Notes: generated from the sequence alone by a model not told the origin. A stretch of DNA of 64,000 bases from Candidatus Aenigmatarchaeota archaeon (GCA_016931255.1 JAFGFG010000005.1:7053-71052), one strand, 5' to 3'; positions 2,347 through 61,691 are shown, counted from the stretch's first letter. Numbers and translations are program-made.

Positions 2347-4302
2347 ATGACAACTAAATGGATTGTTGAAGATAAGGAAAAAGAGAATGTTTTCTGGCCG
2401 TCTGAAGAGATGAAGAAGGCTGCATGGGTCTCAGACCCGAAGATATACGATGAGGCTTTGAAAGACCAGAAGGCTTTCTGGGCTGAGAAGGCAGGAGCGC
2501 TTCACTGGGAGAAGAAGTGGGACAATGTCTATGAACAGGAACCCGGAAAGCCATGGAATTTCAAGTGGTTCGTTGGCGGAAAGATAAATGCTGCTTACAA
2601 CTGCCTCGACAGGCACGTAGAGGGAGGCAAGGGCGACAAGGTGGCCATGATATGGGTGCCTGAGCCGACAGACGAGAAGCCTGTGAAGATAACATATTCA
2701 GAGCTTAACAAGAAAGTCAACAAGTTTGCCAATGCTCTCAAGAAGCTTGGCATAAAGAAGGGTGACAGGGTCGGTGTGTACCTTCCGATGATACCCGAGC
2801 TCATGATATCGCTTCTTGCAGTTGCGAGAATTGGTGCTGTACACAATGTCGTATTCTCCGCATTCAGCGGGGAATCCGTGAAGGACAGAATGGAAGACGC
2901 AGAGGCGAAGCTTCTCATCACAGCAAACGGATATTACAGGCGCGGCAAGCTCCTTGACCTCAAGAAGAATGCTGACATAGGTGTCGAAGGAACACCTGTC
3001 AAGAACGTTGTCGTTGTCAAGAGGGCAGAGCTTGATGTCAACTGGGTTGACGGCAGAGACCATTGGTTCCATGAGCTTATCGAAAAAGAGAGCGAAAAGT
3101 GTGAAAGCGAATTCGTGGAAGCCAATGACATGCTGTTCATGCTCTACACGAGCGGAACAACAGGAAAGCCCAAGGGCATTGTTCATGACACCGCAGGATA
3201 CCTCACGCAGGCCTACTGGACAACCAAGTGGAACTTCAATGCCAAGGATGACGATGTCTTCTGGTGCACAGCTGATGTCGGCTGGATAACCGGACACACA
3301 TACGGATGCTATGGACCGTTCTCAAACGGCATCACACAGATTGTTTTCGAGGGCGCTCCCGACTATCCGGACATCGGACGATGGTGGAAGACGATTCAGG
3401 ACCACAAGGTCAGCGTGTTCTACACAGCACCGACAGCAATCAGGATGTTCATAAAGGCCGGCGATGCATGGCCTAAAAAGTACAACCTAGAGAGCCTCAA
3501 GATACTCGGTTCAGTAGGTGAGCCGATAGACGAGGAGGCATGGCTATGGTACTTCAGGACCATCGGAGGGGGAAGATGCCCGATAATAGACACATGGTGG
3601 CAGACCGAGACCGGCGCAAATGTTGTCAACACGCTTCCGGGTATCGGACCTTTCATACCGACTGTGGCAGGACGGCCGTTCCCGGGAATAGACATGAAAC
3701 TCGTTGACGAGGAAGGGAATGACGCAGAGATGTCAGGATACCTCGTTGAGAAGCCTCCTTTCGCACCAGGCATGCTCAGGGGCATCTACAAGAACGAGCA
3801 GAAGTACATAGACACATACTGGTCAAGGTTCAAGAACCTTTACGATACAAGCGACGGAGCAAAGCTCAGGGAAGACGGACTCATCAGGATAACAGGAAGG
3901 GTTGATGATGTCATGAAGGTCGCGGGACACAGGCTTTCCACAGGAGAGCTCGAGAATGCCATAAACGAGCACGAGCTCGTCAGGGAATCAGCAGTCGTCC
4001 CGAGGCCGGACAAGATAAAGGGCGAGGTGCCCATAGTCTTTGCTCTTCTCATAGACCCGTCCAAGGCTACTGAAGAGACAAAGGCCGAGATTGTCAGGCA
4101 CGTCGACAAGATGATAGGGCCGACCGCAAGGCCGGCTGCAATCTACTTCGTGGATGACGTGCCAAAGACACGTTCAGGAAAGATAATGAGAAGAATTCTC
4201 AGGGGGCTTGTCACGAACGACACGAACCTCGGAAATGTCACAACACTCATGAATCCCGAATGCGTCGAGCATCTCAAGGAAGTCGTTGGATACGGGGGCT
4301 AA
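2347..4302 (+). CDS. acs: acetyl-CoA synthetase, AMP-forming
   Basis: 651 aa with the AMP-binding signature YTSGTTGKPKG. It is full-length Acs-like across N-terminal, ANL core and C-terminal lid, including the catalytic-lysine region PKTRSGKIMRR. Confidence 0.93.
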   Translation: MTTKWIVEDKEKENVFWPSEEMKKAAWVSDPKIYDEALKDQKAFWAEKAGALHWEKKWDNVYEQEPGKPWNFKWFVGGKINAAYNCLDRHVEGGKGDKVAMIWVPEPTDEKPVKITYSELNKKVNKFANALKKLGIKKGDRVGVYLPMIPELMISLLAVARIGAVHNVVFSAFSGESVKDRMEDAEAKLLITANGYYRRGKLLDLKKNADIGVEGTPVKNVVVVKRAELDVNWVDGRDHWFHELIEKESEKCESEFVEANDMLFMLYTSGTTGKPKGIVHDTAGYLTQAYWTTKWNFNAKDDDVFWCTADVGWITGHTYGCYGPFSNGITQIVFEGAPDYPDIGRWWKTIQDHKVSVFYTAPTAIRMFIKAGDAWPKKYNLESLKILGSVGEPIDEEAWLWYFRTIGGGRCPIIDTWWQTETGANVVNTLPGIGPFIPTVAGRPFPGIDMKLVDEEGNDAEMSGYLVEKPPFAPGMLRGIYKNEQKYIDTYWSRFKNLYDTSDGAKLREDGLIRITGRVDDVMKVAGHRLSTGELENAINEHELVRESAVVPRPDKIKGEVPIVFALLIDPSKATEETKAEIVRHVDKMIGPTARPAAIYFVDDVPKTRSGKIMRRILRGLVTNDTNLGNVTTLMNPECVEHLKEVVGYGG

Positions 4303-4332
4303 AACCCCTCGGACTCTTCATTTTTGCAGCGT

Positions 4333-5019
4333 TCACTTCCCGAACTTTCTCTGCTGCTCTTTATACCATTCCAGAATGTTCTCGAAATCCTTTTTTGTGA
4401 ATTCAGGCCACATCTTCTCTGAGAAATATATTTCAGCATAACTGGACTGATAGAGCATGAAATTGCTCAGCCTGTGCTGGTTTCCGGTCCTTATGATGAG
4501 GTCAAGAGGCCTCTTGACGTAGAGCGCCCTGTCAAGCTTGCTGGCAGGCTTTCTGAGCGTTTCCTTGAGAGCCTGGTTCATCTCGAGCTTTGAGCCGTAT
4601 GCGAGCATTATGTTCAGCACAATGCGCGAATAGCTCTTGGTCGAGTCGTAAAGCTCCTTGACAATCTGCTTTATGTTGGGCTTCCATGTACCCCTCTCGC
4701 CAACGACCCTCACCTTCATCCTCTTGTTGACAACCCTCGGGTCCTTGAGAAGCTTCTTCAGCTCAGCGCCGTACACCTCCCAGAGGGCGTCCACTTCCTC
4801 CTTGGGCCTTTTCAGGTTCTCAGTTGAAAGCGCGAAAATGGAGACCATCTCTATCTCAGGATGCTCGTCGCACCATTCGATGAATTCTTCAATTCTCTTG
4901 GCGCCTTCCACATGCCCCTGTATGGGATTGAGTTTCCTGTCAAGTGCATATCTCCTGTTGCCGTCAGGAATGAGTCCTATATGGATGCCTTTTGCGACCT
5001 TCTTACTCATCGTAATCAC
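4333..5019 (-). CDS. uppS: cis-prenyltransferase (undecaprenyl/dolichyl diphosphate synthase, UppS family)
   Basis: IPDGNRRYA near the N-terminus plus RTGNQHRLSNFMLYQSSYAEIYF match the UPP synthase family. Size is 228 aa. Confidence 0.85.
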   Translation of the reverse strand: MITMSKKVAKGIHIGLIPDGNRRYALDRKLNPIQGHVEGAKRIEEFIEWCDEHPEIEMVSIFALSTENLKRPKEEVDALWEVYGAELKKLLKDPRVVNKRMKVRVVGERGTWKPNIKQIVKELYDSTKSYSRIVLNIMLAYGSKLEMNQALKETLRKPASKLDRALYVKRPLDLIIRTGNQHRLSNFMLYQSSYAEIYFSEKMWPEFTKKDFENILEWYKEQQRKFGK

Positions 5020-6939: not shown

Positions 6940-7848
6940 ATGGCTCATGAAAGCATTGCGGCGGAGATAGCGAAGCTGAAGAAGAAGCATAATGCAGTTA
7001 TACTCGCGCACAACTACCAGCTTCCGGAGGTCCAGGACATAGCTGATTACACAGGCGATTCCCTCGGGCTTGCGATGAAAGCAGCAGAAACGGATGCTGA
7101 TGTAATAGTATTCTGCGGGGTAATGTTCATGGCGGAGACAGCGAAGATACTCTCTCCGGAAAAAAAAGTAATAATACCGGAACCGGATGCATTATGTCCC
7201 CTTGCAGCGATGATAACACCTGAGACTGTAAGGAAGCTGAAGAAGGACAATCCCGGCGTGCCTGTCATAGCTTATGTCAACACAACTGCTGCTGTAAAAG
7301 CTGAATCAGACTACTGCTGCACATCCAGCAACCTCCTGAAGGTAGCTGACCACGTGAAAACCAGGAAGATTATATTCATACCTGACAGGCACATGGCTGC
7401 ATACCTCCAGATAGAATCCGGAAAGACCGTAATCACAGGCAACGGCTACTGCTCTACGCACGCGAAGATACTTCCGGAGCACATCATGAAGCAGAAGAAG
7501 AAGCATCCGAAAGCAATGGTTCTCACTCATCCTGAATGCGTGTATGAAGTGCTTGAGCTGGCTGACATCATAACAAGCACAGGAGGCATGCAGAAGTATG
7601 CAAAAAGCCTTGATGCCAGGGAGTTCATAGTCGCAACAGAGAACGGGCTTCTCTACGGGCTGAGAAAGGACAATCCGGGAAAGAAGTTCTATCCCGCAAG
7701 CGAATCTGCATTATGCCCCAACATGAAGAAGACTGACATGGGAAAGGTTCTTGAGTCGCTGAAGACGCTGAAGCACGAGGTCACGCTGCCTGATGACATA
7801 ATCAGGAAGGCAAAGCTTCCCATAAAAAGGATGCTGGAAATATCTTAA
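6940..7848 (+). CDS. nadA: quinolinate synthase A
   Basis: ILAHNYQ, VMFMAETAKIL and three Cys-containing segments match the NadA family. Size is 302 aa. Confidence 0.9.
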   Translation: MAHESIAAEIAKLKKKHNAVILAHNYQLPEVQDIADYTGDSLGLAMKAAETDADVIVFCGVMFMAETAKILSPEKKVIIPEPDALCPLAAMITPETVRKLKKDNPGVPVIAYVNTTAAVKAESDYCCTSSNLLKVADHVKTRKIIFIPDRHMAAYLQIESGKTVITGNGYCSTHAKILPEHIMKQKKKHPKAMVLTHPECVYEVLELADIITSTGGMQKYAKSLDAREFIVATENGLLYGLRKDNPGKKFYPASESALCPNMKKTDMGKVLESLKTLKHEVTLPDDIIRKAKLPIKRMLEIS

Positions 7849-27498: not shown

Positions 27499-28584
27499 AT
27501 GAAAGTTTATGTGGCAACGAACATCATAGGCGTGTTCGCTTTTGATGATAAGAAGATGGTTGATTACAGCCTTTTCCAGCCTGACGCTGTAATCATAGCA
27601 GAGAAGCTGAAGGATGTCAGGAAAGGCGAGCTGATTCCCGAAGAGGAGAAGTTGATAAAGGAACTGAAAAGGGCAGGCTACAAGAAGATAATCTGGGACA
27701 AGAGGATAGATTTCCCGGGAATGGAATGCCTCTACGAGCCTGACAATGTTGCCAAGACAATCCTCCAGAAAGACTACAGGAAGCTCGCGCTCGAGCTGAA
27801 GTTCGTCCCGACGCAGACAGAACTGAACAAGCTCCTTTCAAGGATTAATATCCAGCTTACCAAGTCTGAGCTCAGGAAGGAGAAAAAGGATGTCATACTG
27901 ATGAGGGCCATCGGAGTTCTGGACGAGCTCGACAGGACCATCAACACGCTTTCGGAGCATATGAGGGAATGGTACGGGCTTTACTTCCCTGAAGCCGAGA
28001 AGCTGATAAAGGACCACGAGCATCTTGCAACAGCCATATCAACAGAAGGCAAGAGGGAGAGCATTTCCGATTCTCGTGTCAGGAAGTATGCCTCATTATC
28101 CGCAGGCATGCCTTTCAATGGCGACGACCTGATAGCTGTGCAGGGATACGCCAAGGAAGTCAAGTCGCTGTACAAGACGAGGGACAACATCTCACTTTAC
28201 ATACGCAAGGAAGCCAAGACATTCATACCGAACCTGACAGCTGTGGCAGGACCTCTTATAGCATGCAGGCTGATCTCACTTGCAGGCGGACTGGACAAGC
28301 TGGCGAAGCTTCCTGCAAGCACAATACAGCTTCTTGGTGCTGAGAAGGCGCTGTTCAGGCATCTCAAGAGCAATGAGAAGCCGCCCAAGTTCGGAGTCAT
28401 ATTCGCTCATTCTCTCATACAGGATGCTGACAGAAGCGTGCGCGGCAAAGTCGCAAGAATGCTTGCGTCGAAGCTGATGTTTGCGGCAAGAGCGGATTTC
28501 TACACAGGAAAGAACATAAGCGAGAAGCTGATGTCAGACCTTACAGCAAAAATCGGAACCTCATCAAAGGTAAAGAAGAAGTAA
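27499..28584 (+). CDS. nop5: box C/D snoRNP protein Nop5 (Nop56/58)
   Basis: 361 aa. N-terminal Nop5 NTD, a coiled-coil region, and a C-terminal Nop domain (AGPLIACRLISLAGGLDKLAKLPASTIQLLGAEKALFRH). Confidence 0.88.
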   Translation: MKVYVATNIIGVFAFDDKKMVDYSLFQPDAVIIAEKLKDVRKGELIPEEEKLIKELKRAGYKKIIWDKRIDFPGMECLYEPDNVAKTILQKDYRKLALELKFVPTQTELNKLLSRINIQLTKSELRKEKKDVILMRAIGVLDELDRTINTLSEHMREWYGLYFPEAEKLIKDHEHLATAISTEGKRESISDSRVRKYASLSAGMPFNGDDLIAVQGYAKEVKSLYKTRDNISLYIRKEAKTFIPNLTAVAGPLIACRLISLAGGLDKLAKLPASTIQLLGAEKALFRHLKSNEKPPKFGVIFAHSLIQDADRSVRGKVARMLASKLMFAARADFYTGKNISEKLMSDLTAKIGTSSKVKKK

Positions 28585-29027: not shown

Positions 29028-29690
29028 GTGGTTATGAAGAGTGTATTCGACGGTGTTTTCAGGAGCGGCAGGAAGCTCTTCACAATGAACATGATACGCG
29101 GCTACAGGGAGTATACAAGAAGCACTGTGTCGGAGGGCGGGAAAGTCTACAGGGAGTGGGACCCCGGAAAGAGCAAGCCTGCTGCTGCGATAATGAAAGG
29201 CATAAAGAAATTTCCCCTTTCCAGGGGATCGAAGGTGCTTTACCTTGGCGCTGCCTCAGGAGCCACGTGCAGCTTCTTCTCGGACATAATCGGAGAGGAC
29301 GGCGTCATATACGCGGTCGAGATATCAGAGCGGTCAGTGAGAGACCTCAACAACACTTCAGAGGCGCGCGGCAACATAGTCCCCATACTTGCTGATGCGA
29401 GGAAGCCCGAGGAATATGAATGGGTCGAGCCTGTGGACATAGTCTTTCAGGATGTTGCCAGCGACGACCAGGCACAGATACTTGTGAGGAACGCCGTGAA
29501 GTTCCTGAAGAAGGGCGGCTATGCCATGATAGCCATAAAGTCGAGAAGCATAGACGTCACAAAGCCTCCAAGGGAAGTGTACAAAGACCAGCTTGAGATA
29601 ATGGAAAAGAAGATGAAGGTGCTGGAAAAGGTGGAACTTGACCCCTTCGAGAAGGACCACCTTTTTGTCATCATGCAGATGAGGACCTAG
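29028..29690 (+). CDS. flpA: fibrillarin-like rRNA/tRNA 2'-O-methyltransferase
   Basis: SAM-binding motif VLYLGAASGATCS and C-terminal fibrillarin blocks (FQDVASDDQAQIL, MIAIKSRSID). Likely start MKSVFDGV at 29034. Confidence 0.9.
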   Translation: MVMKSVFDGVFRSGRKLFTMNMIRGYREYTRSTVSEGGKVYREWDPGKSKPAAAIMKGIKKFPLSRGSKVLYLGAASGATCSFFSDIIGEDGVIYAVEISERSVRDLNNTSEARGNIVPILADARKPEEYEWVEPVDIVFQDVASDDQAQILVRNAVKFLKKGGYAMIAIKSRSIDVTKPPREVYKDQLEIMEKKMKVLEKVELDPFEKDHLFVIMQMRT

Positions 29691-33960: not shown

Positions 33961-35520
33961 CTAACCACCATTCTTAAGTAAATAATAATTGTAGCCTTTT
34001 ATTAAAGCGTCCCTGCTGGCTTTTATTATATCGTCAGAAGCACCGGAAGTTGACCACGACTTGTCTCCTGCCCTGAATTCTATGAAGACCTCGACTATTG
34101 CTGCAGTGGCCTTGTCCTGGTTTATTATCCTCACCCTGTAATTTGTGAGCTTCAGGTTGTCCACGCTGAATTTCTTGGAGAGGGCTTTTCTAAGAGCCAC
34201 GTCAAGTGAATGGACCGGCCCCACGCCTTCCGCTATCTCATGGAAAGTGTCATTCCCTACTGACACCTTCACCTCGGTCTTTGCCACACCCTTAGAGGAT
34301 ACGGCAGTCTCGTAGCTGACAAGGCTGAATGCGTCTTTTTTCCGGTTTATCTTCTCTGAAAGCATGAGGAACAGCTCAGCATCGGTCGTGACTTCTCCCC
34401 TGTTCATGACTTCCATCATTTCAATAATAAGTGGGTCGTTTTTCCCAAGGCTGTAGCCGTGTCTTCCCGCAGCGTCCACGATGCCTGATCTTCCTGACTG
34501 CTCTGATAGGCTGAACAGCCTGCTGTTTCCGACATCGTCCGGATTCATGTGCTCGTAAGCCCTGGAATTCTTGAGCATCGCATCTATATGCACGCCTCCT
34601 TTATGGCTGAATGCATTGGCTCCTATGAAAGGCTTGTTCTTCGCCAGGCTGAATCCTGTCATCCGGACAATGTATCTGGATAGGCTGAAAAGCTTTTTCA
34701 TGTCAATGTCAAGTTTCATCCCGAGCTTGATGCCTGTCAATGGGAGGAACTCGCACCAGTCCATGTTACCGCACCTTTCTCCGAGCCCGTTCATGGTTCC
34801 CTGAACATGGAATGCGCTGTTACGCATCGCAGAGAGCGTATTCATAACAGCCATGCCTGTGTCATTATGCATGTGCACGCCGATTTCACTGGAAACTGCT
34901 TTGCTTACTGCGCATGATATCTTTTCGATTTCCCATGGCATCGACCCCCCGTTGGTGTCGCAGAGGACCAGGGCTTCAGCTGATTTGGCGGCATCCAGGA
35001 CTTTGAGCGCGTAATCCGGATTCGCCTTGTATCCGTCGAAGAAATGCTCCGCATCAAAGAACACCCTGAAATCATGCGATTTGAGATACTCTATCGTATC
35101 GCTGACCATCCTGAGGTTTTTGTCTGGCGACATCCTCAGTACATCCTTGACATGTAGGTCCCATGACTTCCCGAATACTGTTATTACATCGGCTTCCGTC
35201 TTCAGAAGGTCGTCTATTTTCTTGTCCTTTCCAGGACTGGGACTTGTCATTCCGAATACAGCGGATTTAGCCTTCAGTCCCATGCCCTTGACATTTTCGA
35301 AATATTTCTTGTCCCTGGGATTGGATGAAGGCCATCCGGCTTCTATATAATCAAAACCAAAATCAGAAAGCTTACCGCTTATTGACAGCTTGTCATCAAG
35401 GCTGAATTTAAGGCCATGCGTCTGGGCACCGTCCCTGAGCGTGGTATCATAAAGAATCAGTTTTTTCGCATTTTTTGGGCTGATAAAATCTGTTACTTCA
35501 TTCCAGGATCCGGCATTCAC
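33961..35520 (-). CDS. 2-isopropylmalate synthase / (R)-citramalate synthase family (LeuA/CimA)
   Basis: HMGL-like TIM barrel (DTTLRDGAQT, HxH motif VHMHNDTGMAV) plus a C-terminal LeuA-type regulatory domain. 519 aa. Confidence 0.8.
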   Translation of the reverse strand: MNAGSWNEVTDFISPKNAKKLILYDTTLRDGAQTHGLKFSLDDKLSISGKLSDFGFDYIEAGWPSSNPRDKKYFENVKGMGLKAKSAVFGMTSPSPGKDKKIDDLLKTEADVITVFGKSWDLHVKDVLRMSPDKNLRMVSDTIEYLKSHDFRVFFDAEHFFDGYKANPDYALKVLDAAKSAEALVLCDTNGGSMPWEIEKISCAVSKAVSSEIGVHMHNDTGMAVMNTLSAMRNSAFHVQGTMNGLGERCGNMDWCEFLPLTGIKLGMKLDIDMKKLFSLSRYIVRMTGFSLAKNKPFIGANAFSHKGGVHIDAMLKNSRAYEHMNPDDVGNSRLFSLSEQSGRSGIVDAAGRHGYSLGKNDPLIIEMMEVMNRGEVTTDAELFLMLSEKINRKKDAFSLVSYETAVSSKGVAKTEVKVSVGNDTFHEIAEGVGPVHSLDVALRKALSKKFSVDNLKLTNYRVRIINQDKATAAIVEVFIEFRAGDKSWSTSGASDDIIKASRDALIKGYNYYLLKNGG

Positions 35521-35573
35521 CCTTCATATCAGCACCTAAACTAGTTATGTGGACATTCATTTAAAAATAAAAA

Positions 35574-35836
35574 GCGCCGAGGGCAGGATTTCCAGAACCG
35601 CGCGGAAGCGTACTTTCCGCGAACGCTTTAGCGTGTTTACCTTCGCTAAAGGGCTCATTTGAACCTGCACGTCCGTAAGGACACCAGATATCTCGTCATT
35701 TCCGCCGCCCTTCGTAAGAAGGATTGATCGGAGTCAAGCCATACAATCATCTCCGGAGCCTTACGGTCCGGATCTTTATATCTGGTTTCAAGTCTGGCGC
35801 ATTAGCCAGGTTCTGCCACCTCGGCATGTGTCTTTA
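35574..35836 (+). ncRNA. structured ncRNA candidate (SRP RNA or RNase P RNA-like), class unresolved
   Basis: GC-rich 340-nt ORF-free gap in a moderate-GC genome. The 5' gccgagg/cagaacc pairs with the 3' ggttctg/cctcggc (long terminal helix). Internal hairpins include cgcggaa/ttccgcg and ctttagcg/cgctaaag. Two GNRA-type GUAA tetraloop hairpins (gtcc-GUAA-ggac, ccttc-GUAA-gaagg) are on the plus strand. Partial resemblance to RNase P CR-I/CR-V (AAAGGGCUCA ... ACA..GGAGCCUUACGG). Confidence 0.4.
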
Positions 35837-35861
35837 TTTGCAGCTTTTTATTTAAAAAGGG

Positions 35862-36068
35862 TTACAGCTTGTCTGTATGCACGAAACCCGCTTTCCTGGC
35901 CTTATCAAGCTTCCATGTGTCTTCTATCAGCATATCCGGGACATTCCCGTCAAGAACAGGATACGCAAGCCCGCACCTGCTGCATGTTATGAACATGTTC
36001 TCTTCTTTCACGTTGCCTTTGCATTTCGGGCATGCAAGCACGTTTTTCAGATGTTCTGAAATTGCCAT
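35862..36068 (-). CDS. Trm112/YcaR-like zinc-ribbon protein
   Basis: 68 aa. LACPKCKG ... CSRCGLAYPVLDGNVPDML matches the Trm112 family pattern. Confidence 0.6.
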   Translation of the reverse strand: MAISEHLKNVLACPKCKGNVKEENMFITCSRCGLAYPVLDGNVPDMLIEDTWKLDKARKAGFVHTDKL

Positions 36069-36996: not shown

Positions 36997-37788
36997 ATGG
37001 AAGTCCAGAGCTTCGAAAGGGAAATTGAAAGGACATGCAGGAAATGCTTCACCATATATGATTTCACGCGCGACTACTGCTGCGCAAAGAGCAAGGATGA
37101 ATGCTTCGCTGACATCGAGCTTGTCAAAAAGGGCATAGTCCAGGATGAGGCAACAGCCGAGAAGCTGTATATGAACAAGGCAATCGACTACAATGGAAGA
37201 CTGGTGAAGAAGTCGTTCTTCCGGGGCGCTCTCAGGAATGAGTGCCTTGTCTTCAAGTACAGGCCGCCTGGATGCAGGTCGCATTTCTGCTGGAGATGGA
37301 ACAAGTACATAGAGAAGAATCCAAGGGACTTCATTTACGCCAATCTCAATGTGACATCCCTTAACCGGTTCCTTAAGGAGCTTCATGATGAATACGTCTA
37401 CGGTGTCAGGCTGGCTTATCCCGGAGGCATCATAATATACACATACGACGAGAAGATAGCGACAGTAAGGAAGGCCATAGAGAAGCAGCTGGACTCCATG
37501 AAGATAAAGCACTTCAGGACGAATGCCCATCTCATGGAACCGGAAAAGAACGAGAAAGAGGGAGTTGAGATAATAGTCGACGACGAGGCAGTGATTGAGA
37601 AGACACGGGTGTTCAGCACTCTTTTGAAGAATAACATGTTCATGCTCGTGAGAATGAAGATGAACCTAGGCTCCACAGGGCACAATCATTCCAACATACT
37701 CATAACCAATGCTGACTTCAGCAAGCTGGCTGACGAGACCCCGGCGTCACTGAAGTCTTTCCACGCGCTAAAGGCATACCGGATATAG
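36997..37788 (+). CDS. hypothetical Cys-rich protein
   Basis: 263 aa. N-terminal CRKC...YCC...DEC and a later CRSHFCWRW cluster. No recognisable family. Confidence 0.45.
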   Translation: MEVQSFEREIERTCRKCFTIYDFTRDYCCAKSKDECFADIELVKKGIVQDEATAEKLYMNKAIDYNGRLVKKSFFRGALRNECLVFKYRPPGCRSHFCWRWNKYIEKNPRDFIYANLNVTSLNRFLKELHDEYVYGVRLAYPGGIIIYTYDEKIATVRKAIEKQLDSMKIKHFRTNAHLMEPEKNEKEGVEIIVDDEAVIEKTRVFSTLLKNNMFMLVRMKMNLGSTGHNHSNILITNADFSKLADETPASLKSFHALKAYRI

Positions 37789-61539: not shown

Positions 61540-61691
61540 GCCTCGGTGGCTCAGTGGTTAGAGCGCCGCACATCCCTAATAAGGATTGGGTGAAGCTCAT
61601 AAGCGTGTCTTATGAGCGATGAGAAAACGTTTGTTTTCAATGACATAGCTGAGATACGCGGAGGCCGTGGGTTCAAATCCCGCCCGAGGCA
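61540..61691 (+). tRNA. tRNA gene with ~79-nt insertion (intron candidate); anticodon unresolved
   Basis: 5' GCCTCGG-TG-GCTC-AGTGGTTA-GAGC-G-CCGCA. 3' CGCGG-AGGCC-GTGGG-TTCAAAT-CCCGC-CCGAGGC-A. Normal acceptor, D and T arms. Same acceptor stem as the tRNA-Thr at 44153. The insert contains a 9-bp hairpin GCTCATAAG/CTTATGAGC and box C/D-like GATGAG ... CTGA motifs. Confidence 0.55.

Follow-up and report, generated by a model that had tools for sequence, protein, structure and literature searches.

Introns in archaeal tRNA genes are usually 12–25 nucleotides (nt) long (median), with a range of 11–129 nt, and are not conserved (PMC4090602). tRNA genes with several introns are well documented in the Thermoproteales (PMC4033280, PMC8450103), the published maximum for archaeal tRNA genes being three introns (PMC8450103, PMC4033280). 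Relaxed splice motifs of the bulge-helix-loop (BHL) type are cleaved only by splicing endonucleases (EndA) of broad specificity, and for the DPANN archaea only "missing" tRNAs have been noted, with hidden disrupted tRNAs being suspected (PMC5829648). The known conserved exception among archaeal tRNA introns is that of tRNA-Trp, which nests a box C/D guide RNA (PMC4090602). The boxes of such guides have the consensus RUGAUGA/CUGA, methylation is directed 5 nt upstream of box D or D', and the two motifs lie 12 nt apart in archaea (PMC1865073). Here we analyse a 64,000-nt stretch of DNA (the window), whose host was placed in the Candidatus Aenigmarchaeota (DPANN) through the source names of homologues of a Cbf5 protein that it encodes, and describe in it what is very probably a 251-nt gene for tRNA-Ser(UGA) at 35825..35575 on the minus strand, interrupted by two protein-spliced introns of the bulge-helix-bulge (BHB) class.

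Identity of the gene

The minus strand of the locus reads GCCGAGG-UG-GCAG…UGC-G-CCAGA-CUUGAA, then 97 further nt, A-UCUGG, a variable arm, GCAGG-UUCAAA, another 69 nt, and finally U-CCUGC-CCUCGGC-G. The exons and introns are delimited as follows:

35787..35825, minus strand: exon 1, tRNA nt 1–37, comprising the acceptor 5' strand GCCGAGG, the D-arm, the 5' strand of the anticodon stem and CUUGAA
35790-35788, minus strand: anticodon UGA, inside exon 1
35690..35786, minus strand: intron 1, 97 nt, at the canonical position 37/38, with a relaxed motif of BHL type
35658..35689, minus strand: exon 2, tRNA nt 38–59, comprising the 3' strand of the anticodon stem, the variable arm GUCC-UUAC-GGAC, the 5' strand of the T-stem and UUCAAA
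35589..35657, minus strand: intron 2, 69 nt, in the T-loop at 59/60, with a strict hBHBh' motif
35575..35588, minus strand: exon 3, tRNA nt 60–73, comprising U60, the 3' strand of the T-stem, the acceptor 3' strand CCUCGGC and the discriminator G73; CCA is not encoded

Joined in silico, the three exons give an 85-nt class II tRNA which ARAGORN calls as tRNA-Ser(tga) with a full cloverleaf, displaying an acceptor stem of 7 base pairs (bp), G73, a D-arm, a 5-bp anticodon stem with a 7-nt loop bearing the UGA anticodon, a long variable arm and a 5-bp T-stem with the T-loop UUCAAAU.

Loci of relatives were fetched around homologues of Cbf5 (54–92% identity), and metagenome contigs were scanned with the conserved core of intron 1. 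Throughout the relatives with Cbf5 identity of 54–92% the tRNA gene is kept at the same syntenic spot, downstream of Cbf5/Trm112, while the scan returned 16 stretches, 14 of which are the same tRNA gene and two of which represent one chance match within a protein-coding gene. The metagenome scan and the Cbf5-anchored loci together furnish 18 distinct versions of the gene, 184–503 nt in length; comparisons of intron 1 rest on 16 distinct introns, and counts of promoter and terminator signals on 17 copies. Six versions have one intron, five (including that of the window) have two, three have three and four have four. The four-intron versions (L007 11148-11526; L012, on the minus strand of its locus, 4052-4386 on the reverse complement; L014 233-697; L015 2005-2342) are interrupted in the D-arm at 22/23, at 37/38, in the variable arm and in the T-loop at 59/60, and all four splice in silico to tRNA-Ser(tga), as ARAGORN calls every one of the 18 versions once the insertions are removed.

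In 15 spliced sequences the cloverleaf is paired in 360 of 360 cells, versus 31–50% when the partner strand is slid, and compensatory double changes occur at six of its pairs, spread over the acceptor stem, the D stem and the variable arm (three of the four variable-arm pairs). The elements by which archaeal seryl-tRNA synthetase identifies its substrate are a long variable arm and the discriminator G73; the versions possess a variable arm of 12–13 nt with a covarying 4-bp stem, and G73 in 18/18.

The standard searches pass over the gene. Rfam cmscan of the whole window at the gathering score gave nothing at the locus, and at E<=10 on 35450-35950 alone it gave just three meaningless matches (E 5–8); default ARAGORN over the window and the relatives' loci called nothing at the tRNA-Ser locus. 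The behaviour of the orthologues accounts for this. At homologous coordinates, the one-intron versions L004 and L011 score 44.4 and 40.5 bits with the Rfam tRNA model RF00005 (gathering score 29), and the same model misses every copy with at least two introns, which explains the negative cmscan result in the window. With its intron search enabled, ARAGORN recovers solely L004 among these loci, a version without the T-loop insertion, as tRNA-Ser(tga) with a 111-nt intron, and it miscalls the other split tRNA of the window. The two-intron tRNA-Ser(UGA) identity can be held with high confidence, and appears settled as far as sequence analysis allows.

Certain points do weigh against this identification. 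The unspliced copy in the window is matched by neither Rfam nor default ARAGORN, and it was recognised through splicing in silico and through its orthologues. The inner helix at the 5' site of intron 1 amounts to merely 0–2 bp in the 18 versions, and cleavage at so relaxed a site therefore needs an endonuclease tolerant of relaxed motifs. Splicing, ribonucleoprotein (RNP) formation and circularisation are all inferred from sequence. Finally, the search within this genome covered the window, and it may not be the sole tRNA-Ser(UGA) gene.

A first-pass annotation of the window had interpreted the region as a free-standing non-coding RNA of ~260 nt, either signal recognition particle (SRP) RNA or RNase P RNA, and such an RNA could in principle be too divergent in DPANN for Rfam. 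Covariance models are known to be weak on DPANN RNAs, the size is fitting, a long-range helix joins the ends, and both strands fold stably. Kink-turn motifs, described below, are also present, and their ligand L7Ae binds RNase P and SRP RNAs as well (PMC5539422). Yet no Rfam family reaches its gathering score here and none that is relevant appears on the region even at E<=10; orthologues dwindle to 184–196 nt by the clean loss of whole blocks, leaving behind a tRNA recognised by Rfam and ARAGORN; and the conserved long-range pairs all belong to the cloverleaf. Inspection by eye for the motifs of SRP RNA (AGCA/GGAA of helix 8) and of RNase P RNA (CR-I/CR-V, P4) found none consistently arranged, and neither an AGCA/GGAA helix-8 motif nor a P4-type pseudoknot is seen. 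We reject archaeal SRP RNA (RF01857), for which AGCA is absent from the gene on both strands and the fold is multibranched instead of rod-like, and likewise RNase P RNA of the archaeal types A, M and T (RF00373, RF02357), the blocks of whose would-be catalytic core are cleanly absent in orthologues; neither model gave a match. The probability left to either identity is negligible. An H/ACA guide RNA, considered because Cbf5 is encoded next to the gene, was also rejected, as there is no ACA box and no pseudouridylation pocket, and the ends form an acceptor stem. A different objection is that the locus might be a dead tRNA-Ser gene broken up by insertions, with the functional gene located elsewhere. 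This would agree with its being skipped by standard tools, with insertions that are large against the usual 12–25 nt of archaeal tRNA introns (PMC4090602), and with a search confined to the window, beyond which a functional copy could sit. A pseudogene is, however, difficult to reconcile with purifying selection on the exons and compensatory changes over 18 versions, with splice-site geometry kept at every insertion, or with the conservation of promoter position and synteny. In the closest relative (L001, with Cbf5 92% identical), 55 nt of the gene precede the contig end. They take in exon 1 and the first part of intron 1 and match the window with 100% identity, whereas the neighbouring spacer is diverged. 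We consider a pseudogene very improbable, and proceed with a tRNA-Ser(UGA) gene in three exons.

Splice sites, intron turnover and maturation

In scoring BHB motifs, every placement of the boundaries yielding an identical spliced product was taken into account. Intron 2 displays the strict arrangement of two 3-nt bulges, a 4-bp helix between them and flanking helices: in the window, UUCA/UGGA forms the central helix between the 5-bp T-stem and the 5-bp inner helix GAGCC/GGUUC, and both bulges read AA|U. In other copies the inner helix varies in sequence with its pairing kept (e.g. GCUCA/UGAGC in L010), and the central helix of the T-loop intron is complete (4/4) in 9 of 12 copies. Intron 1 has a bulge AU|A at its 3' splice site, next to a 4-bp helix of CUUG (32–35) with CGAG, and at its 5' splice site AA|A followed by a large structured loop. 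In all 18 versions its central helix is 4/4 and its outer helix 7–8 bp. This central helix varies on the intron side only, pairing being kept through wobble (U-A to U·G, G-C to G·U). Read from the opposite strand, these changes would produce A·C mismatches, and the strand is thereby fixed as minus. A reading on the plus strand is rejected, since it is the minus strand that agrees with the promoter spacing, the wobble pairs and the tRNA identity.

Intron 2 is absent from six orthologues and from L017. The last of these is 99.7–100% identical to L022 over ~760 nt, and the sole difference between them is the ~80-nt T-loop intron, which L022 has and L017 cleanly lacks; therefore, this intron is a discrete, dispensable element that was recently gained or lost. 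At the same 59/60 site we find at least three mutually dissimilar families of T-loop introns (those of L010, L012/L015, L026 and L027), 69–199 nt in length, a diversity that suggests repeated, site-specific gain of mobile BHB introns. Some relatives bear additional introns in the D-arm at 22/23 (42–48 nt) and in the variable arm (34–74 nt), each with a 4/4 central helix, and removal of the variable-arm intron restores a 12-nt arm as in the relatives that lack it. With four insertion sites, presence and absence between near-identical strains, and unrelated families at one T-loop site, the gene family captures archaeal tRNA-intron dynamics in progress.

A separate observation concerns the motif G-Y-U-N-A-C-G-C (e.g. 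GCUGACGC, GCUUACGC, GUUGACGC). In 3.9 kb of intron sequence it is found 12 times where ~0.5 would be expected; the counts are not independent, some of the introns being homologous. It is carried by introns of L009, L010, L014, L016, L022, L026 and L027, though not by the window's own, and spans three intron classes, namely the enlarged hairpin Pa of intron 1, the variable-arm intron and the T-loop introns. It is not enriched across the window as a whole.

Two putative expression signals bracket the gene:

35851..35858, minus strand: TATA-like box TTTTTAAA, which begins 33 nt before the mature 5' end
35563..35573, minus strand: T-rich tract UUUUUAUUUUU, which begins 2 nt past the discriminator

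A function of the former as a TATA box is suggested by archaeal promoter geometry. An 8-mer composed entirely of A and T lies at -31 to -38 in 14 of 17 copies, regardless of the upstream gene. In L001, an inserted 196-amino-acid open reading frame (ORF) on the opposite strand (7050-7640), methyltransferase-like to judge by its sequence, separates the Trm112-like gene from the tRNA gene. L001 keeps the TATA-like box in spite of this different, divergently oriented upstream gene, and a tRNA gene with its own TATA-like box behind the inserted ORF supports an independent promoter. The UUUUUAUUUUU tract is likely an archaeal terminator; a run of at least four T lies within 9 nt downstream in 9 of 17 copies. 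From archaeal tRNA biology, the following course of maturation may be envisaged: transcription would start under the direction of the gene's own TATA box near -33, the 5' leader would be trimmed by RNase P, EndA would cut both BHB motifs, an RtcB-type ligase would join the exons and probably circularise the introns, and CCA would be added.

The core of intron 1 and its possible role

Intron 1 is present in all orthologues, with a length of 97–147 nt, and follows a single design: 5'-N-CCRGAWAWW-AHGA-Y-[hairpin Pa]-R-RRU-GA-YUK-NAUGGCUUGACU-CCGA-YC-AAW-[hairpin Pb]-NGCGGCGG-R-NAU-GA-SGAG-(YRRG)-AU-3'. Its linking segments are invariant in 22 of 30 and 14 of 18 columns, versus 62 of 73 in the exons; the hairpins differ widely in sequence (Pa in 16 forms among 16 introns, Pb in 15) and all of them fold. 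With a core conserved nearly as well as the exons, the intron appears to be more than a passive spacer. Each hairpin is flanked by a kink-turn signature, in which the non-bulged strand has GA abutting the stem and the bulged strand consists of stem, 3 nt and GA (…GA-Y[hairpin]R-NNU-GA…). Within the window the elements are, from 5' to 3':

35772..35776, minus strand: non-bulged strand of kink-turn 2, with box D-like AAGA and the closing U; GA is invariant in the 16 introns
35753..35771, minus strand: hairpin Pa, CCGGACC GUAA GGCUCCGG, the C-stem of kink-turn 2
35745..35752, minus strand: bulged strand of kink-turn 2, with the closing A, the loop GAU, GA and UU; start of box C-like AUGAUUG
35732..35743, minus strand: 12-nt spacer UAUGGCUUGACU between the C-like and D'-like boxes, fixed in length, its last 11 nt invariant
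35726..35733, minus strand: non-bulged strand of kink-turn 1, CUCC-GA-UC, with box D'-like CCGA; invariant except for the covarying closing Y
35710..35722, minus strand: hairpin Pb, the CCUUC UUAC GAAGG region, on the C-stem side of kink-turn 1
35692..35702, minus strand: bulged strand of kink-turn 1, GA-AAU-GA-CGAG, with box C'-like AUGACGA

The kink-turns are supported by covariation as well as by conservation. RRRUGAYU on the bulged strand of kink-turn 2 is conserved in every version, and the closing pairs covary over the 16 introns, with ten U-A and six C-G at kink-turn 1 and 15 U-A and one C-G at kink-turn 2. Four of the five Pa pairs have double-sided changes, and in Pb of L011 CCUCC/GGAGG replaces CCUUC/GAAGG. 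On an unbiased MAFFT alignment, the intron 1 model is paired in 98.4% of cells, versus 22–53% when slid, with double-sided changes at five pairs; RNAalifold independently finds Pa together with a long helix CUUG·A·CUCC/GGAG·YRRG. The distance from the C-like box to CCGA is exactly 12 nt in 16/16 distinct introns. Most relatives have a separate YRRG after GGAG; by comparison, 4 nt are missing from the window, L017 and L022, and the window's CGAG doubles as the 3' strand of the central helix at the splice site.

The boxes, AUGAYUK, AHGA, AUGASGA and CCGA, depart from the RUGAUGA/CUGA consensus, as does their order along the intron, D-hairpin-C-spacer-D'-hairpin-C', a circular permutation of C-D'-C'-D. 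Kink-turn 1 makes a near-canonical C'/D' pair (AUGAGGA/CCGA), differing from box C/D kink-turns in a G-C in place of U·U, and kink-turn 2 a weaker C/D pair (AUGAYUK/AHGA). The pattern of kink-turn 1 (R-AAU-GA-GG/CC-GA-Y) also matches that of the U4 snRNA 5' stem-loop (C-AAU-GA-GG/CC-GA-G), though with reversed strand connectivity, the hairpin loop here closing the C-stem side.

Binding of L7Ae to intron 1 at both kink-turns is probable, and well supported by these features. What such a complex would do is a more speculative matter. The window also encodes Nop5 (27499-28584) and fibrillarin (29028-29690), 6–8 kb from the tRNA gene, and we tentatively propose, as a possibility rather less probable than otherwise, that intron 1 forms a circularly permuted box C/D-type double kink-turn RNP, binding L7Ae and perhaps Nop5-fibrillarin, and acting as a methylation guide or as a splice-site switch. 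As regards guidance, the 5' segment of the intron, CCAGAUAU, can pair with AUAUCUGG at the 3' splice junction, placing U39 at N+5 from the D-like box (register set by hand), and U39 of its own tRNA is hypothetically a methylation site. As regards switching, the spacer UAUGGCUUGACU includes a copy of the anticodon-loop CUUGA, and in the RNAalifold and pairing models its CUUG pairs in cis with the same YRRG that the exon CUUG needs for the splice site; the intron can therefore take either a closed or a splicing-competent form. The YRRG strand would alternate between the intron copy of CUUG and the anticodon-loop CUUG, only the latter pairing building the splice site. The permuted D-C-D'-C' order implies that the usual box order would be restored if the excised intron were circularised, and a target of the spacer might be engaged at that stage.

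In the window, a search for such a target with the spacer complement AGTCAAGCCAT at up to one mismatch returned only the intron itself, and a full-text search of the literature with the same string gave unrelated primers only. A scan of 129 kb of the relatives' loci with Rfam turned up neither rRNA nor SRP or RNase P RNA that could serve as a guide-test sequence, and a strict regular-expression search for standalone small RNAs of the canonical box C/D kind, run over the window and eight loci to calibrate box usage in this lineage, found none. The spacer complement may resemble the 16S decoding-site region (GUCA…), a likeness on which we make no claim.

The gene could also be as described, with the conservation of intron 1 reflecting merely folding and splicing structure or recent common descent, and with no L7Ae, C/D RNP or guide function at all. 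We regard this as a serious contender, if still somewhat improbable. The boxes off consensus (AUGAYUK for RUGAUGA; AHGA and CCGA for CUGA) and in permuted order speak for it, as do the A·A mismatch that the CCAGAUAU/AUAUCUGG pairing has opposite A38 in 5 of 16 versions, the pairing of the spacer in cis with the intron's own 3' end, and the lack of a trans target in the window. It leaves unexplained why 22 of 30 core columns should be invariant while the adjoining hairpins differ in 16/16, when ordinary BHB introns are short and unconserved (PMC4090602). Two GA…NNU-GA motifs with covarying closing pairs, separated by exactly the 12 nt of the published rule (PMC1865073), would moreover be superfluous for recognition by EndA. 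Should the proposed intron 1 RNP prove real, tRNA-Ser(UGA) would follow tRNA-Trp as the second archaeal tRNA known to harbour a functional RNA in its intron, and would be the first such case in DPANN. An anticodon-loop intron that is always present and conserved offers, in any event, a concrete case in which to address the long-standing question of whether tRNA introns do anything in their own right.

Genomic setting and relation to known systems

The gene lies in a gap of 341 nt (35521-35861) between an HMGL/LeuA-family gene (33961-35520, minus) and a Trm112-like gene (35862-36068, minus), as identified by Pfam. An ORF scan of this gap gave nothing beyond chance ORFs of 31–43 amino acids, and the folding stability exceeds that of dinucleotide shuffles on both strands (z -3.68 plus, -3.35 minus). 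The first-pass annotation was right that the gap contains a structured non-coding RNA gene missing from annotation, with a long-range helix closing its ends, and the span it gave, 35574-35836, is nearly identical to the extent of the gene, though on the wrong strand. Of its terminal helix, the 7-bp GCCGAGG/CCUCGGC is found in the sequence and is the acceptor stem of the tRNA. Its extension by CAGAACC/GGTTCTG is not conserved: this would pair the D-arm with the 3' end of intron 2, of 12 copies of intron 2, just those of the window and L009 contain GGTTCTG, and six copies of the gene are without the intron. The hairpins it named do exist, and fall in intron 2, the variable arm and intron 1 of the tRNA gene; cgcggaa/ttccgcg and ctttagcg/cgctaaag are both within intron 2. 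GUAA (GNRA) loops had likewise been pointed out, and hairpin Pa indeed has one, but two of the three exist on the plus strand only, being UUAC on the transcribed minus strand, where they form the variable-arm loop and the loop of hairpin Pb. The claim that the gap is much more GC-rich than its surroundings overstates a modest contrast, the gene having a GC content of 0.538, the flanking coding sequences 0.47–0.52 and the window 0.471; the gene looks like a GC island because two thin AT-rich spacers (0.28–0.30) flank it. Of the outcomes that the annotation had named as telling against it, one was observed, there being no covariance-model match in the window, but another was not, the cloverleaf and intron structure being strongly conserved in relatives.

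Nearby, at 36997-37788 on the plus strand, the window encodes a conserved cysteine-rich protein of 261–264 amino acids with no Pfam match, whose gene is always the divergent neighbour of Cbf5 in the fetched loci and is followed by a 58-amino-acid ORF and a UbiA-family gene.

A second intron-bearing tRNA gene lies at 61540-61691 on the plus strand. In Rfam it appears as a tRNA interrupted by 88 nt, and the intron search of ARAGORN miscalls it as tRNA-Leu(gag). Resolved by hand, it comprises two introns, at 61570-61594 (25 nt, at nt 30/31 in the anticodon stem) and 61602-61655 (54 nt, at 37/38, with CUCA/UGAG as its central helix), and the spliced product is called as tRNA-Met(cat), which could be elongator Met or Ile2. 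Its introns contain the kink-turn or box-like strings GGGUGAA, CGAUGAGA, AAUGA and CUGA, the last situated 3 nt short of the 3' splice site; the tRNA introns of this lineage may commonly carry motifs of this sort.

The hidden two-intron tRNA-Ser(UGA) gene offers an explanation for one of the "missing" tRNAs of DPANN annotations. Genes with at least two long introns escape both Rfam and ARAGORN; therefore, tRNA complements, along with the inferences on completeness and codon usage drawn from them, are underestimated in these lineages.

Among known systems, archaeal SRP RNA (RF01857) and RNase P RNA (RF00373) resemble the locus in length, in an end-to-end closing helix and in kink-turns of the L7Ae type. 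It differs from them in lacking a covariance-model match at the thresholds tried and any of their defining motifs, and its closing helix is the 7-bp acceptor stem of a tRNA. Much closer are the multi-intron tRNA genes of the Thermoproteales and other archaea (PMC4033280, PMC8450103, PMC4090602), with which it shares BHB introns, one at 37/38 and one at a non-canonical site. As in these genes, orthologues gain and lose introns and the gene is missed by standard tRNA finders. Unlike those cases, it belongs to a DPANN lineage, has introns of 69–199 nt across the family and counts relatives with four introns; the 199-nt T-loop intron and the four-intron relatives exceed the published limits of 129 nt (PMC4090602) and three introns (PMC8450103, PMC4033280). 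For intron 1, the nearest counterpart is the intron of pre-tRNA-Trp(CCA), a guide for Cm34 and Um39 (PMC4090602, PMC1865073). Both are long, conserved introns at 37/38 with two kink-turn motifs 12 nt apart, and as in pre-tRNA-Trp the intron is complementary to the 3' splice junction, with U39 at N+5 from a D-like box and with Nop5 and fibrillarin encoded. The present intron differs in its host, tRNA-Ser(UGA), in its degenerate boxes and their permuted order, and in a spacer without a target in the window. Taken together, these comparisons indicate that the gene joins the known class of multi-intron archaeal tRNA genes, and that its double kink-turn intron is apparently paralleled only by the intron of tRNA-Trp.

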